A stretch of 64,000 bases of DNA from Chiloscyllium plagiosum (Eukaryota). Below, in pieces: positions 3,018 to 52,521 of the stretch (within the stretch, counting starts at the first letter, position 1; each line of letters starts with the position of its first letter). The notes beneath the pieces are model-generated. The model ran no database searches and had not been told where the DNA came from. It worked only from the letters and a program-made list of their open reading frames with translations. The position numbers and the translations under genes are program-made. The stretch is from assembly GCF_004010195.1 (NCBI RefSeq), contig NC_057718.1:95136003-95200002 (forward strand). Reading direction: 5' to 3'.

Positions 3018-3178
3018 TTATCATAGATGAGCCCATCAATTCCACTCGTCTTCAGTATTCTCCTGTTTTCAGACTCATTGGTATCATCGCCCCAACAAAA
3101 AATGACCAAATCTCTTGACTTGGCTTGCTGGATATAGTCCAGGTTTCTGAGCAAGTCCTCTGTGTGAACATTGATTCC
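3018..3178 (-). CDS. GPCPD1: GPCPD1 coding exon 18 (GINVHTEDLLRN...FCWGDDTN...GIDGLIYD)
   Basis: 161 nt, follows a 126-nt intron, donor TAA|GTAAGA. Confidence 0.96.
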
Positions 3179-3304
3179 CTTTTCACCAAAAACAAAAAAA
3201 AAGCTTTAAGCAGCTGAAAAAAGGTCATGTTATTTGAAAGCATAATACTAAAAGATAGTATTCTTCTGCCAGCGTATAATAATGTGTACAGGACCAATCC
3301 CTAC

Positions 3305-39745: not shown

Positions 39746-40675
39746 GGCAGAAGTTTTAAAATCCCACAGCCAAAAGTCTCATTAATGTTCAATACCTCAG
39801 TTTGTGTACGCTTCCTTGTCACTAAACATTTATGTTGGAATTCACACACAAAATTGGTCAGAAGGCAATTTTTTTTCCTACAGTGGAGATGTCATATCAT
39901 TAATAGGAGAGTGTCACACCATAACTTTACACCAGATTTTACAGGTGCAGATTCCATTACAAAGCTAGATACAAAAACTTTAATGGAAACACAAGAACAA
40001 CAATGGACGACATTAAGAGTTGGGACTAAATGCTGTGCACACATACGGATCTGAATCTTCACACTCTGGTTCAGCTTTATCTGAAATCCACACTTTGTTC
40101 TGACTTTCCAAGTGCTGCATGTCAGATGTTTGACTGGTACAAATAATAAATCACATCCACTTCTATCAATAGGTGTGTGTTCTATCTAGAATATTTATCG
40201 CACTGCAGCTATCAAGGTTAGATTTAAAAAGGTAATGCAATTTAGGAACCTTGTGAGTTGGAAGCAATTTGCAATTTACACATTTCACACATAGGCAGAC
40301 TTACATGAGGCACTGTTTACTACTTTAGCCTTATGAAAACTGGGTATCCAAGAGCACAGGAAATAGGGAACTGGAGTTTCACTTTAGTCAAATACACACT
40401 GCAGTACATGGCATAATGTTCCTGAACTTATAATGCTTCATTCAACTTTTAAGTAAAGCAAAAGATACTATACTTTACAGTATACAAAAACAAAGTACTG
40501 CTGATGCTGGAAACAATTGTGCTGTGCAAAAACTTAACAGGCCTGGTACCATCAGTGCAAAGAAAATGTTCATTTCTCAAGTCCAATATGACTCCTCTTT
40601 GGAACTGCTCTTGAATTTGATGTTGTCTTCACACATTAACATTTCACAATAATAAAAATAATGCAGCACACTTAC

Positions 40676-40717
40676 TGTGGATTCCAAAGTATCCATCATT
40701 CAGAATGCACTCTCCTT
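40676..40717 (-). CDS. GPCPD1: GPCPD1 coding exon 5 (EGECILNDGYFGIH)
   Basis: 42 nt, acceptor ttttctgttctag, donor ACA|GTAAGT, phase 1/1. Confidence 0.92.
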
Positions 40718-43516
40718 CTAGAACAGAAAAATAAAGTATTGGGAGAAGTCAATAATTGTTGCTGTAGAGACATTACCCAGTTTAAAATTAAACAATGTAT
40801 GGCAGTTTTAAAGTTGGATAAAATTCATTTGAAAGAAAGAGGAATTTTCCTGATATAAAGGCATTTTTTAAAAACTAAGTATATAAACATTGAAGTGCTT
40901 TGTAATCACAGACCTATCTTCAAAATTAAAGTTGAAAACTTTATTCAACACCCTTACAGGGCAGCATACTGAGCACTGAAGGCCATTTCCAGTCCTTAAA
41001 ATGTAAGCAAGATTTGTAAAACTGGAAAAAATAAGTCTTTCATTACCCCCAGCCAGTGAAATTCAGGGAGAATGATGGGGACAATAATAGCTACATCAAT
41101 TAATGATAAGGAAAATAAATATCAGAGCAATACATCAAATTAACATTACAATTACATAAAGGTTTCAACGAAGAACACAAGAAATAGGAGGGCTGGGCTC
41201 ACAACTTCCCAAACCTGCATGCTGTTCAATATTTGGTTGATCAAATATAGTCCAGAACACCACTTCTCTGCCCTCTCCCCATTTTAATTCTATTACAATT
41301 CAAAAAGACATCTCAATCTTGAACCTAATCAACTTCAGCCACTATAAGAGCAAAAACATGGGAAACGTAAACATTTCTTTTACAAAATGGGATAAGAATT
41401 GCTCCACTGGCCACAGTAATGTAATTACAGACTTCTTCCGTACCCTTCTTCATTCTGCAACTACTTCAGCAGATTTGAACCTGATTTTGTTCAAAGTAAA
41501 CTTCCTCACAACATGCCCCTTGGCAAAAAAGGGGACCAGCCAAAGCACACTTTTAGTACTTTGAGTCTTCGTTAACAGATGTCAGCAAAAGTAATGGAAA
41601 CTGTTTGCATTACATTATTGTTTAACTTGTTTTGGACTGGGAACAGTTACTTACTTTTAAAGAATGTTCTCACAGTTATGTCCCTTGCCTCTGCACTGAT
41701 TTTGAAACCAACGTGAAGCTACTAAACAGATAGAATATTCAAGTTGCTTTAACTTAGACATTCAATAGCATTATCTGGATATATCTGACCAGGCATGAGT
41801 TCTAGCATTTTAAATGACCCTCACTGCAGATGTAGTTACATGTGACAATCAATCTGGTAATTGCTTGGATAGTGAGGGCTTTAGAATGAGGCCTTTAATC
41901 AACCTTATCTTTACATGGGGATTACATCGGAACCACAGACAGCATTGATGACAAACTGCAAATAATAAATTACTTGAGTGCTGACAATTAACCCACTCTA
42001 CACAGCCTTTACTTTACTGATGCCTTTATGGGGAGCCTCAATAAACATGGGGGAAAGAATATGTCAATGAGATAAGAGGAGAATAGGGGGATGTTTGACA
42101 TACACCAGTATTGGTCTAATGGGCTGAATGTCTTGTCTGTGCTGCAACTTGACATTCTGGAATTTACATGTTGCCGGACAGATGGTACTGTATGGCAACG
42201 TTTGCGAAACTCCAGTTCCCTATTTCCTGTGCTCTTGGATATCCAGTTTTAGGATCTGGATAGAAGGCCTTCAGAACTCTTGTGCATGCATGACAACACT
42301 TTTTCCATTTGAACCTACTTTATGGCTTACTCCAACATTGCAAAGGCAAGTAGTCTGCACACGAAGGAATAGGTAAATAGATACATGGGAACCTCTGTAC
42401 ACAATCAGAATTTGGATCATTGAAGAGTTTCATCACAAACATTTTCTTCATGAACAGTTAGGTTTAATATAAACATTGAGACTCCAGAAGCCAAGTGCCA
42501 TTTTCCTAGAACGTTTTTATTGACTGTATTTGTTAAGTGACATTCAACAGACTACAGACATTTGATATTCAAAGCTGTTAACTGCCTTTACAGTAGGTGC
42601 AAAATATGGGATTTACTACATTTTCAGACACTTGGACAGAGTGCCAAAGCTATGCTGCATGAGAAGTATGAGCTAATGCAATTTTATGGTCTCAATTGGA
42701 TATACTGGTCCTGGGTTTGCTTTGCAACCACAGACCAACTTCAATCAGACAGATTCTGGAGGTAATACAAAAAGGAATTCTGAATTCTATCTTTCCATGA
42801 GTACCAGAACCCAGGATGATGTGGCAGGAGTCACTGATTCAAGGACACAACAGAGAGGGCTAATATCCTAGGATTGAGTCCCACTTTTAACAAAATTGCA
42901 ACATTGACAATTGTGTCAATGCTACAGGTACACTTTTGTCAACTGCATTGCAAATATCAATAAAAAGATATTAATGAGGTTAATGAGGTACTGGGAGGAA
43001 TGTGACTTTTCTTCAATTAAGAAATTGAATCAGTCACAAATTGCAGACGACAACTTGAATGGAGTCTGGTTTGAATAGAAAAGTTACCTTCTTATAGCAA
43101 TATCAGAAAACCTTGTGGCAGGCCCAAAGTGCCCCATTTTCCTGAAGCACCTAAACATGTTACTGCCTCAACTACAGCAGTGACATCTTGGGAGAACTGA
43201 GCATCTAGTGCAGTATGCATCTCCATAAAAACTTTTCTTCAGAATCTGCTATTACCTGGTGTTGCCTGTCCAGATGGTGACTTTTTGGCGTTTATACACC
43301 CTGCTTCTAAATATTGTACTCACCTGCAATTTAATTCAATTCTTCTCGATTTATAGGTCTGAGATGTTTTAATTGATTTCTTCTTCTGTACTTAAAGCAA
43401 ACCTTAAAAAAAACTAATGGCAAATTAGGTGCAAGATAGCACACTCAGCGGCAGCACACAGGGAAACAGCTCATGTGCTTCAGGTTTTTAGGGGGAAAGC
43501 ACAGCTGTGGTGCTGC

Positions 43517-43562
43517 ACACTGAAACAGCACTGTGCTGTACACTGAAACAGCACTGTGCTGT
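43517..43562. repeat. Perfect 2 x 23-bp tandem repeat acactgaaacagcactgtgctgt
   Basis: Read directly from the sequence. Confidence 0.9.
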
Positions 43563-45054
43563 TTTCTGGACTGTCAGGCAGGAACAGGCACATTGCATTC
43601 CTTAGCATATCAATACTGCAACTTTTTTTACTCAACCTTGAGAAGACTGGATGCTTCCCTGTAGCTTATCAAATTGGTCTCAATGATGCAATGGAGCTAA
43701 AGGCTCACCACAAGGGGTCAAGAAGTGGAAAAATACTTTAAGAGATACTTACAAAACAAAAACAAACATTGTACTTTGAAGAAATCTAAATCTCCACTGA
43801 GAATTACATATATAGAATACTCAATAGAAAACAACTCTTGACATGATTATTTAAGATAAAGTTACTTGCAACTGGGACAAATTTCATAGTAAAATAAATT
43901 TATGTTTATAAATTTAGAAAACTAACTGGGGCAAACAATGACATTGTCAACAAAAAATGGTACAAGCTAAGATTTATGCATGTTTAAAAAGAGACTAACT
44001 GTTTCCATAAATGCAAATATCAGTGCAAATGCAGCATAGTGAAGTTTTTAACCCACCAAAGCCACATACAATTGCACATTTTAAATACTTGTCCAGTCAA
44101 AACAGTGCAGGAATACATTGTCTATCAATGTGAATTGCCACGAATACATGATTTGCATTGTAGCAACATAAATTTGAAGTAGACTGTAATTTTGATGTTA
44201 CAATTGTAGCATTCTCTAAGAAAGCTTTATTCAGCTTTGGTAATAAAAATGGTACCACTGTGGCATTTAAATTCTTTTGGAAATGTTCAAATTTTTGGGT
44301 GGTCCAGGGATTAAAGCTGATTAATGGTTCAACATGGGAAAAAGCAAATCTGCACCCAAACTCTCTCTCTCCAAATACCAATGGACAAAGAGTATCAAAT
44401 AAAATGCAGCAGCTTTTCACCAAAGAGGTGGTAATGTAGGTGCTTGTGTAATCAATAAGATTTAAACAATAACAGATTACACTGTACATAGGTTTATACG
44501 TCCCTGTGGTCAGTATGACAGCAAACTGTCGACCATCTGTCCAACCTCATTTATGAGGAATGGTGCCAAGACAGCCAGAAGACAGAGAGGGAAAAATAAA
44601 TTTTAAATTAGTTGGTGTAATAGTTTACGCTAAATAACTTTTCAAAACTTTGAAATCTATGTCAATCTAAAGTATTGTGCAGAATCAACAAAATAACCTT
44701 GATGCAAAACAGCTTCTGTGACGTATTTTAAATGATAACTCTGAACGAAACTTAAGTTCAGAGCATCCCAAATACAGATCAAGAGATTAACCATAAAGGT
44801 ATACAAATATGCAAAGGTGTGAGGGAGGAATACACGACTGTTTAGAAGTGCTACTGATATATTCCTGTCCAACATGACAGATGTTTGGTTCATAAAAAGT
44901 CAGAAATATAATGTGGGAGCAAATATTGGTGTTAAGTAATATATCTCAAATTGAAAATTAAATGATTATTGTTAGATGCTTAATTTTATCACATGTAGCT
45001 CTGCTATTGCCAATCTGGCAGATAACAGAAACTCAATACACTGTAGTGACATAC

Positions 45055-45130
45055 CCGACGGATTAAATGATCGTGGATGAGGATGAGTCTCCCACTTGTT
45101 GACTAGCACTTGCCGAAGATCAGCAGGGTT
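45055..45130 (-). CDS. GPCPD1: GPCPD1 coding exon 4 (NPADLRQVLVNKWETHPHPRSFNPS)
   Basis: 76 nt, acceptor ttgactcag, donor CGG|GTATGT, CBM20 KWE motif. Confidence 0.95.
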
Positions 45131-47568
45131 CTGAGTCAAGTGATAAAAAGATTAAAGCCCTTTATCATAATGCAAAAGGACTAGAAGAAAATTCAAGCTC
45201 AGAGGACAAGAGATAAGTTTTAATCACTTCTGGGAAAGTGTTTACAACTTTTTCATAATGTGCTTTTTATGTAATAACATGATTGTCTGAAGCTACAAGT
45301 ACTGAGGATAATAACCAATATTTAAACTGGGTTAACCACAGTACATCTTAATAACAGCATATCAGAGCACCAACAGGTGACACCGCACAAGAGATGCAGA
45401 TTTGAACTTCTTACTGAAGAGTTCCAATCTCAACATTCCTGTCACAGGTCCCATCAATTCCCTACAGAGGAGAGAAAAGTTGGTAGGATTGCTATTGCCA
45501 GGTTATTGTCATGAGCTTCCAACTGGCTGTCTGACAGAACAGCTGTACTGGCAGATGCATAGAAACAGGCTGCCAGGTCTGCAGGAGGTGCATAGCCCGG
45601 CAAGACCTGCATAGGAAATAAATGGATTAGTTATTTATGTAAATCAGCATACATGCACCATACATACAATTACAAATTGCAGCTTAGACTCATTCTTCAA
45701 CATTACTAGTAATTATTCTGCCATTACATCAAAAAATTGGTGAACTACAGAAATATTATGATTGCTAAAATAACAATATAGTACTCTTCTTAAAGTTACT
45801 TAAAGGATCAAGATAGCATAGGGAATCAGAACTTTCATTCCAGCAGAGAACAATGAGACAAATCCCCACCCTCTAACTCTTAAGCATCTGCATGAAATAA
45901 CTGGGCAGACTCAGTACAGTTTAAATGCATGGGCCCCAGCACAAAAACTCCATTTCTGGTTTTGCTAGCAAGGAGAAAAATAATGACAGGTGTGGGAAAT
46001 GGGGAAAAAGCAATATTCGACAAAGTACGTGATACTACAGTTTGGCACTGAAAATTGAAAGTGTCCCCTTGTTAGAACTTAGAAAGTTCTAGGAGCACAA
46101 AAAAAAATCAAGAAAAAAATTAACATAAGCAAGCCTTAAATATCATATGTATTCTTCTTGAAGCAATACTATATCCATTACAAATTTTAAATACAAACAA
46201 ATTTGGTAAAATGATAAAAATTACATAAAGATCTATTTCATTTACTTAGGAATCAGGGCCTGTTTGTGCATCCAATAGTCAATACGACCAATACAATTTT
46301 AAAAAAATAATTGAAATGGCCACATACACACAATTTCTTTTTTTTAAAAAATGGGATATTTCAGTTTTGTCTGAACAAAATAGGTAAAATTAAAATCAGT
46401 GCTGCCAATAGGTCGACCTACTACAACAGTATCAATATCCATTTCAAAAACAAGTTTCAACTCAAGCCAACACTGATATCTCACATTCAGCTCAAGTTTT
46501 TAATCACCATTATCAACAAGAAACCTATAATCGCCAATGCCTTGATGTTATATGGCTCAAAATGCTCTTTCCAGACACAATCAATCAATTAAAACAAGAA
46601 GTCCACACACCCATTAAATGCTTTACAGAAATCCTAGTGGCAACACTGAAACAGTTTAAATTTCCTTTACTTCAATTTCAGTTCATTTGTATTATATAGT
46701 TCAGTTAGGATAGCAATTGATTTAAATTTTCAGTTTTTAATATACCCAATTTTTAATGAATTTTGAGGAAGTCCAGTTAAGTTAAAACTGAAGCCACTCA
46801 ATCTTAAGAATGAAACCTATTAAGATTTTAAAAAATTGCAACAGGCTGTTTGTTAAAAAGGAATCTAATGATGATAAACCTCCAAAGATGCTAATCAATT
46901 GCCAATTGAAAGAAAAGTAAGATGCTGCAACAGATTATTCACTGCTGCTAAAGTGAGCCAGCATTAAGAAACCCGCATTTAAAAGATAATGCAAAAGGAT
47001 GGAAAGGGACATGGGTCTAATCTATGCAGTTACTGCAGGAAAGTCTTTATTAACATGCACTCAGAGTGAAGGTGTTGATGCAGAACAGAATGGAACGTAC
47101 AGTAACACACTACTCTACCTCAACCAGTTAACCCACGATTTATTTTAGCCTTAACCAGAAGAAGCAAGATATCAGCTAACATTACAAATTCATCCATTAT
47201 ATAGCTGAGATTAAGAATTCTTACTAAGACAAATTTTTAAGCCAGAAAAGTTATGTCTTTTCTTTACCATTTTCTCTCCCTTACCCTGTAGAATTAGCAT
47301 TCATTTGTGTATGACAACAAACATCAGCAGGACAGTCAGCTGTCCTTTCTGCAGGAGAAGGGAAAGAAAAAAGGCCAGACTGCACCCATCTCCTAGTATA
47401 ACACTTTTCATTGCATTTTTCTTGTAAATGTACATTTATCAATAAATTCTAAATGTGCTTATACAACAAGAACCTGAAAGCAATTCATCCACCAGATTCC
47501 ACAGCAGGATCCTCCAAAACCCAAATATTAAACAAATGATGTAGTCATATCCCAAAAACAAGTCTTAC

Positions 47569-47653
47569 CTTGGGCTCCAGGACATAACATTTGAAGTAGC
47601 GATATTTGACAAGGGTGGCTCCAGGGAGAAAAACAGTCGCCCTCCACGTTAGG
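47569..47653 (-). CDS. GPCPD1: GPCPD1 coding exon 3 (LTWRATVFLPGATLVKYRYFKCYVLEPK)
   Basis: 85 nt, acceptor tttgtctgcag, donor AAG|GTAAGA. Confidence 0.95.
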
Positions 47654-48476
47654 CTGCAGACAAAAAATGGCAAAATCGTAGAAACATCCAATTAAGATGG
47701 TCATTTTTAGTTGCATTTTGACACAAACTAAATAGTTAGAGCCTTTAATACATGAGAACAGTTAATGATCACTGTGAACCAAAAGGGAATACAAAGCTGA
47801 AGATAAAATGGATTTTTAAAAAAACTATCGCCCAAGCTATCAGTGAAACACATTTACTTGCTAGCTTATAGCGAATAAAGAACTTGGTGATCAGACATAA
47901 TTGGCCCAGATATAGAAGTCAAAGAATTTCATGAGGGAACTGGCCTCCCAGAATTAGAGCTAACCTGGAGTCAAAGTCCAATTAACACGAACTGAGCAGA
48001 ACTATTCTTTAACTGTCAAAGGCCAGTGGCAAATATTAGAGTGGTAACACTTGACCATCAAACAAATCCCTTTTCAACATTGCTTAAAGGTATTTCTTGA
48101 AACAGAGATTTTCATCTCAACTCCAAATGTTTTCGATTGAAATGAGGAAAGAAACCGAACATCCACTGCAAAACCTGACAGGCAAACCAAGTCTACAGAT
48201 TCTGTTGATCACCTTCAGAAAATGAAAGAAAAAAAAAACAGGAGGAAAAAAGACAAGAAACAAATACATGTTAACTGGCAGACTAAATAAATTTAAATAA
48301 TTGAATTCCAACTAGACATGCCACAAATCTGAAACAAAGAGCTGGAGAAGCTCAGCAGGACTTTGGAGAGAAATTAGAGTCAATGTTTCGAGTCTAGTGG
48401 CCCTTTCTCAGAAAGGGATGCCACAAATGTGACCGTTTTACTCAGCGAGAATTTATCCTCTCTTACATTCATTTAC

Positions 48477-52472: not shown

Positions 52473-52521
52473 CTGGAAGTGTACGTCCTTTTATTTTGAA
52501 AGTGACCTGTGAAGTGAACAT
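52473..52521 (-). CDS. GPCPD1: GPCPD1 coding exon 1 (MFTSQVTFKIKGRTLP/G); the exon probably starts at 52562 with 41 nt of 5' UTR
   Basis: ATG at 52521, 49 nt coding, donor CAG|GTATTC, upstream acceptor ttttactctag. Resembles the human N-terminus MTPSQVAFEIRGTLLPG as I recall it. Confidence 0.92.

Follow-up and report, generated by a model that had tools for sequence, protein, structure and literature searches.

Exon 4 skipping and a candidate 192-nt stop-carrying cassette in the preceding intron of shark GPCPD1

The window analysed here is a 64,000-nt stretch of the Chiloscyllium plagiosum genome (assembly GCF_004010195.1, contig NC_057718.1, positions 95,136,003 to 95,200,002), and all coordinates below count from its first letter. 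Its minus strand carries GPCPD1 (GDE5), which encodes a choline-releasing enzyme, in 19 coding exons running from about 52521 to 836. Translation of coding exons 1-13 reproduced the C. plagiosum GPCPD1 X1 protein (P0124) at 421 of 421 residues, with 2 differences from the C. punctatum protein over the same exons. Homozygous knockout of GPCPD1 is embryonic lethal (PMC11106330). The analysis centred on intron 3, a 2438-nt intron between coding exons 3 and 4, and on the exons around it:

52473..52521, minus strand: GPCPD1 coding exon 1, from the ATG, placed by translation against P0124
48477..48567, minus strand: coding exon 2, placed by translation; loose contig ends pass from exon 3 into exon 2 (compared by eye)
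47569..47653, minus strand: coding exon 3, 85 nt, its donor joined to three acceptors in contigs
45055..45130, minus strand: coding exon 4, 76 nt, skipped; orthologue of human and mouse exon 5
40676..40717, minus strand: coding exon 5, 42 nt, receiving the exon 4-skipping junction

Splice junctions were read from assembled contigs of 4 of 24 listed runs, mapped to 40600-47800; that these contigs derive from RNA is presumed rather than on record. Contigs drop rare forms, none of the listed runs has NMD blocked, and contig depth was used neither for PSI nor for intron retention. Five joints were recovered, four of them with splice ends and the fifth a 37-nt deletion in one of the sampled organisms (organism C), which also differs in intron 3 by 51 letters and 11 gaps at unplaced positions. 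The joint of exon 3 to exon 4 (47569-45130) was present in all four runs, and that of exon 4 to exon 5 in three. Exon 3 was also joined directly to exon 5 (47569-40717), skipping exon 4, in three of the four runs, these three coming from 3 studies and 2 organism labels. The remaining joint linked exon 3 to position 45606 within intron 3 at an exact AG; it was seen in a single contig (depth 5.7) of one run, X2, under another organism label, and this contig consists of 30 nt of exon 3 followed by 45604-45453. The exon 3 donor has three fates, two of which create stops far upstream of later junctions. Run X2 lacked cover over 45420-45452 as judged from bin depth, a gap that says nothing about where a cassette would end. 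Contigs of runs X1 and X3 covered intron 3 and crossed both of its exon borders, a pattern that retained RNA, nascent RNA and DNA would produce alike.

Exon 4 skipping was a recurrent event that the original prediction for this locus had missed. Skipping shifts the frame and leads to a stop in exon 5, giving an 80-codon frame. Among the 190 proteins examined, the RefSeq X2 models of seven sharks (two Chiloscyllium, Hemiscyllium, Carcharodon, Cetorhinus, Heterodontus and Heptranchias) fit the exon 3-5 join, as does the X3 model of Lates calcarifer. In the shark X2 models an out-of-frame ATG in exon 3 reads directly into exon 5. This ATG lies near the end of exon 3 (47569-47590, minus strand) and is kept in the seven sharks; as predicted by the X2 models, the exon 4-skipped message would carry a 594-596-residue frame starting from it, without the CBM20 domain.

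The same exon is skipped and regulated in mammals. Human and mouse GPCPD1 exon 5 measures 76 nt, and PMC7347940 lists it among NMD events of the exon-skipping type; its identifiers are hg19 chr20:5566840-5566915, hg38 chr20:5586194-5586269 ES_NMD and MmuEX0021570. Orthology of shark exon 4 with this exon was concluded because the lengths are equal, because 76 nt is unique among shark exons 1-13, and because published RT-PCR primers match the exon 3 and exon 5 peptides by inspection. Shark exon 4, being skipped and frame-breaking like its mammalian counterpart, belongs to this NMD-type skipping event. Metformin lowers inclusion of the mammalian exon by up to 40 PSI points and AICAR alters it too (PMC4877444), thapsigargin raises it from PSI 35 to 87 and from 41 to 71 in two pairs (PMC5000506), and TAF15 knockdown raises it as well (PMC4935974). 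In the passages and supplement rows covered, these three papers and PMC7347940 describe no cassette or hairpin upstream of the mammalian exon, and the PMC7347940 rows hold no human cassette there; the human exon that it lists as causing NMD on inclusion (46 nt, chr20:5567797-5567842) lies in another intron, 18 kb further into the gene than exon 5.

The original prediction had placed a 47-nt poison exon between coding exons 3 and 4, with a strong acceptor and with its donor in the loop of a hairpin that would act as a splicing switch responding to choline, GPC or osmotic state. The elements concerned are:

45415..45461, minus strand: first-proposed 47-nt exon; 45461 is a possible inner acceptor of a longer cassette, with no joint in contigs
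45387..45442, minus strand: predicted hairpin B, 56 nt and 23 pairs, with the weak donor 45415|GT at its apex

The donor 45415|GTAAGA, the acceptor AG|45461 and the 47-nt spacing are all present in the sequence. Inclusion of the 47 nt gives a 99-codon frame with a stop within exon 4, and at least 8 junctions lie more than 50 nt downstream of that stop, in agreement with the 50-nt rule for premature stops. The wider idea that intron 3 is a place of unproductive splicing was borne out, in that the exon 3 donor enters two stop-making junctions. Site strength was assessed using a crude weight matrix built from the 18 donors and 17 acceptors of GPCPD1 itself (acceptor 6294, whose boundary is uncertain, was left out of training) and scanned over 49.6 kb of intron. 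By this measure the acceptor at 45461 is average rather than strong: 10 of the 17 real acceptors outscore it, 47 of 3067 intronic AGs score at least as high, and it lacks a YTNAY branch motif at -15..-45, as do 4 of the 17 real acceptors. The donor at 45415 scores below 17 of the 18 real donors and is equalled or bettered by 233 of 2860 intronic GTs. Acceptor-donor pairs (25-250 nt) that match or beat both sites number 51 in the scanned intron, about one per kb. The junctions 47569-45461 and 45415-45130 were found in none of the four runs; since contigs drop rare forms, their lack among contig joints is no proof of absence. The boundaries of the 47-nt exon are not supported, as the sole cassette-side junction uses 45606 and its contig continues through 45461.

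Hairpin B folds as originally drawn, with 23 pairs and a CAGU loop at -16.8 kcal/mol (z -2.4); of 300 shuffles, 3 folded equally well. The proposed strand asymmetry was reproduced as well, the opposite strand reaching -12.4 kcal/mol and the two G-U pairs being visible in the predicted structure. Occlusion of the donor would be partial at most: positions +3..+6 are predicted to be paired (p 0.63, 0.91, 0.99 and 0.52), whereas positions -2..+2 are unpaired (p <= 0.05). Folding of this quality is found in 233 of 12159 intronic 56-nt windows (1.9%, 55 loci), and 5 of the 233 donors that score equal to or better than 45415, that donor included, sit in so well-folding a window, which is the background rate. 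A stricter shape filter, itself tuned on hairpin B, returned 7 compact hairpins in GPCPD1 introns, B among them. Rfam covariance models gave no match in a scan of the whole window, and a second Rfam scan gave 5 weak matches, all far under the gathering score and none on hairpin B. No alignable homologues of the stem were found for covariation, and conservation of the stem was undetectable against L001, the only teleost intron compared. With fold statistics at background and the donor GU unpaired, a role of the hairpin as a splicing gate is not supported. The link to choline, GPC or tonicity is not supported either; nothing tying GPCPD1 splicing to any of the three surfaced in literature searches naming the gene. 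Given the backgrounds of pseudo-exons, donor scores and folding in GPCPD1 introns, the 47-nt element is real but alone not clearly above chance.

The junction at 45606 points to a longer element that may end at the same donor:

45415..45606, minus strand: candidate poison/decoy cassette, 192 nt; 5' end spliced in one contig, 3' end putatively at the hairpin donor
45626..45632, minus strand: AACTAAT, consensus-like putative branch point, with the branch A at -21 from the 45606 acceptor
45565..45610, minus strand: predicted hairpin A, pairing the 45606 acceptor, -24.2 kcal/mol
45454..45456, minus strand: in-frame TGA after use of 45606, closing a 125-codon frame

Acceptor 45606 lies 145 nt upstream of 45461, outscores 14 of the 17 real acceptors and ranks in the top 11 of 3067 intronic AGs. 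The 192-nt block has a GC content of 49.5% against an intron 3 average of 34.7%; it forms the GC peak of the intron, resembles exons 3 and 4 (50%) and falls in the top 4.8% of GPCPD1 intronic windows. Between 45606 and exon 4, the donor at 45415 is the only one scoring above 2, save a GT at the acceptor itself; the original prediction was right in so far as a cassette with a stop could end at the hairpin donor. At least 9 later junctions follow the TGA at 45456-45454, so that the 192-nt form obeys the 50-nt premature-stop rule. Its upstream junction was found in one of the four runs and its downstream junction in none, in contigs that drop rare forms. Since none of the joints linked 45415 to exon 4, the 45606 form could be a plain alternative acceptor reading on into exon 4, with the same stop codon as the form ending at 45415. 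Pairs as good as 45606-45415 number 13 in the gene, itself counted. Several competing splice sites are a mark of decoy exons (PMC6097662), and here 45606 and 45461 share the donor 45415, with only 45606 seen used.

Masking of the 45606 acceptor by hairpin A was considered and rejected as evidence. The hairpin reached z -3.3 in a hand-cut 66-nt window and -1.5 in a 46-nt cut, and pairing is predicted at p >= 0.98 for 12 of 47 cryptic acceptors as well as for 4 of the 17 real ones; because predicted acceptor pairing is this common, hairpin A was given no weight. A young repeat origin of the element is unlikely, there being no self-match in the window and no extra contig depth. The 50-residue frame of the cassette had no relatives among 1.84 billion representatives, and truncated short proteins with the shark N-terminus yielded 1 match in 13 candidates, which was no isoform of interest.

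Other features of the window were recorded alongside these. Intron 3 has further strong cryptic acceptors at 47348, 46370 and 46088, and the intron 13330-10376 (minus strand) contains several, including 13013 and 12842. A TGCATG hexamer, an RBFOX-type site, lies at 45657-45652 (minus strand), about 50 nt upstream of the 45606 acceptor, and is one of 27 such hexamers in the gene. Exon 5 is flanked by an inverted pair (42250-42206/40380-40336; 45 nt, 98% identical, 1.8 kb apart) that could pair across the exon. A 23-nt tandem repeat is present at 43510-43562, a palindromic hairpin of -35 kcal/mol at 34411-34348, and a stretch at about 51960-51640 that seems to us to resemble a shark SINE.

For comparison beyond sharks, a pattern scan of metagenome contigs returned one locus, the GPCPD1 gene of a perch-like fish (L001). 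RefSeq models of four percomorph species (in Scatophagus, Micropterus, Morone and Dicentrarchus) include a frameshifting 40-nt cassette between exons 3 and 4, and in Morone and Dicentrarchus a 26-nt partner restores the frame. L001 has both the 40-nt stretch (9 of 13 residues) and the 26-nt stretch (6 of 8), neither of them followed by a GT; the acceptor of the 40-nt cassette precedes exon 4 by 175 nt and has CACTAAC at -17, and the 3' end of this cassette is also in a predicted stem. The two cryptic cassettes of L001 occupy 1833-1858 and 3025-3064; each alone would shift the frame, the first contains a stop, and jointly they correspond to an additional 22 residues in the Morone and Dicentrarchus models. 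The intron just before the teleost exon 4 (L001, about 3155-3199) is by eye well kept in four fishes (gene models P0027, P0061, P0088 and L001).

The percomorph cassettes resemble the shark element in being frameshifting and in occupying intron 3 a short way ahead of exon 4; in L001 a consensus branch point is present as well. They differ in their length of 40 nt, with the 26-nt partner in Morone and Dicentrarchus, and have no significant likeness to it in sequence. Six comparisons of shark and teleost intron 3 revealed no likeness beyond shuffles (18 of 100 shuffles as good), and against the teleost cassette 45606 ranked about 2500-2800 of 3067 acceptors. Hairpin B was noticed by eye to resemble the teleost cassette, down to a matching pairing register, but this likeness was rejected, its rank being about 860-1260 of 3067 random acceptors. 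The shark and ray intron sequences compared were only ones at about 98% identity. Among the 190 proteins, an insert between exons 3 and 4 occurred in no shark or tetrapod, stop-carrying forms being seldom modelled as proteins; long isoforms of caecilian, turtle, zebra shark and platypus were dismissed as in-frame cassette homologues, as they have no exon 3/4 insert.

These observations were weighed against several explanations. The most sceptical treats exon 4 skipping as the sole regulated event, 45606 as a chance strong acceptor used occasionally in a slow intron, and the hairpin and its donor as chance features. It is a real possibility, if on the doubtful side: pseudo-exons matching the 47-nt exon number 51 in the 49.6 kb, roughly one to each kb, folding equal to that of hairpin B arises in 1.9% of windows with no enrichment at donors (5 of 233), the shark intron has neither likeness to the teleost intron nor an Rfam match, and the 45606 junction is one contig. 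Splicing noise would not, however, readily explain why, of the four top-scoring cryptic acceptors of intron 3, the one found joined has a consensus branch point and an exon-like GC block, nor why teleosts too carry frameshifting cassettes in this intron. The explanation first put forward, in which the hairpin opens or closes the donor of the 47-nt exon in response to choline, GPC or tonicity, is very improbable. The splice sites, the frameshift, the stop and the hairpin all match the original description, folding is better on the sense than on the antisense strand, and the teleost cassette, at 40 nt, is comparable in size and has its 3' end in a predicted stem. Yet the sole cassette-side junction is at the other acceptor, in a contig passing through 45461; the donor is weak and its GU unpaired; the likeness to the teleost cassette falls at about rank 860-1260 of 3067 random acceptors; and the inputs reported for the mammalian exon in PMC4877444, PMC5000506 and PMC4935974 are AMPK activators, ER stress and TAF15, not choline.

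A further explanation involves hairpin B together with a second hairpin beyond exon 4:

44990..45045, minus strand: predicted hairpin C, 56 nt and 23 pairs, beginning 10 nt past the exon 4 donor, -17.4 kcal/mol

Hairpins B and C would then flank exon 4 and tune its skipping by masking enhancers or recruiting a factor, and the loop donor would be incidental. Two of the 7 compact hairpins in the 49.6 kb of intron are indeed no farther than about 310 nt from exon 4, each with 56 nt and 23 pairs, and exon 4 is the exon seen skipped. We nevertheless consider this unlikely, as the shape filter was tuned on B and the chance of such closeness for C alone is an estimated few percent, the z-scores are modest (B -2.4; C -2.1 in a 76-nt cut), and the corresponding teleost sequence past exon 4 shows no folding advantage over shuffles (z +1.0). 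Prediction of long-range pairing across exon 4 gave only duplexes with large loops. An 11-nt word stands on both sides of exon 4, at 45500-45490 and 45012-45002 (minus strand); the gene has no third copy on its sense strand, and teleost intron 3 contains 9 bases of the word (L001 2433). Pairing of the upstream copy with the 5' arm of hairpin C might loop out exon 4, a post hoc observation that may be chance.

In the account that we prefer, exon 3 joins exon 4, exon 5 or, in one run, 45606, and the hairpin donor would close a minor 192-nt stop-carrying cassette opened at 45606; we put this tentatively, at a little short of an even chance. Since the contigs show both exon 4 skipping and use of 45606, the hairpin is better read as probably marking the end of this minor cassette than as a 47-nt metabolite switch. 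Exon 4 skipping in sharks is surer by far than any of these mechanistic readings. As mammals too skip this 76-nt exon in a regulated way, exon 4 skipping would be the main dosage control, inherited from a jawed-vertebrate ancestor. The cassette, having a good branch point and acceptor and a weak, half-paired donor, might be recognised more often than it is completed, and would compete with the exon 4 acceptor for the exon 3 donor. It would thereby add a second unproductive route, through inclusion or through a stalled intron as in the decoy-exon model, and NMD would remove both unproductive forms. Hairpin B would only further weaken an already weak donor, and control, in line with reports on the mammalian exon, would run through stress signalling and splicing factors, with no ligand binding the RNA.

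Stem-loops over 5' splice sites are established for MAPT exon 10 and SMN2 exon 7, where they cover the exon-intron junction and have been proven by mutation. Hairpin B shares with these a donor at a stem, and differs in that the GU lies in the loop. Metabolite-responsive splicing is known for SAT1 exon X and MAT2A, and to our knowledge no ligand response has been reported for the GPCPD1 hairpin or cassette. OGT provides a further metabolite-responsive comparison (PMC6097662); SAT1, MAT2A and OGT resemble GPCPD1 as metabolic enzyme genes with an unproductive isoform. The candidate cassette, beside an NMD-type skipped exon, may act as poison or decoy exons do. SF3B1 intron 4, OGT intron 4, ARGLU1 and DDX39B carry decoy exons in which multiple splice sites compete (PMC6097662), and the shark element resembles these as a cryptic cassette in an intron of more than 1 kb, with rare junctions, two possible acceptors and a stop on inclusion. 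According to that paper, decoy exons are highly conserved across vertebrates and promote retention in reporters, whereas the shark cassette is known from sequence and one junction, with no teleost likeness detected.

Literature searches naming GPCPD1 found neither the skip in sharks or a teleost nor the shark cassette; a human cassette in this intron may be catalogued in subscription papers or bioRxiv supplements, which lay outside their scope. No entry for GPCPD1 occurred in the searched supplements of PMC8091538, PMC12026817, PMC11632617 and PMC6097662 (4 of 5 files) or in the main text of PMC13434015, and the accessible portions of 10.1101/2024.12.23.630108, PMC13683050 and PMC13434015 held nothing bearing on the cassette or hairpin. 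The mammalian skip is already known; the shark cassette, and the extension of the skip to sharks and a teleost, appear to be new as far as the literature was searched.

A broader possibility, modelled on the feedback of OGT and MAT2A on their own metabolites, is a GPCPD1 splicing rheostat of jawed-vertebrate age that feeds back on choline or GPC supply. Exon 4 skipping would be its core, and a structured upstream cassette (in sharks 192 nt, each end within a stem; in perch-like fishes 40 nt) would have been kept or re-invented in separate lineages to set the level; we regard this as a long shot. The hairpin and cassette would matter only if conserved and functional, and for now are a lead. The skip of the 76-nt GPCPD1 exon, in mammals mostly an entry in splicing screens, extends to sharks and a teleost, which suggests long-standing, selected control over the dosage of an essential enzyme that releases choline. 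What sets the inclusion of this exon becomes a testable question.
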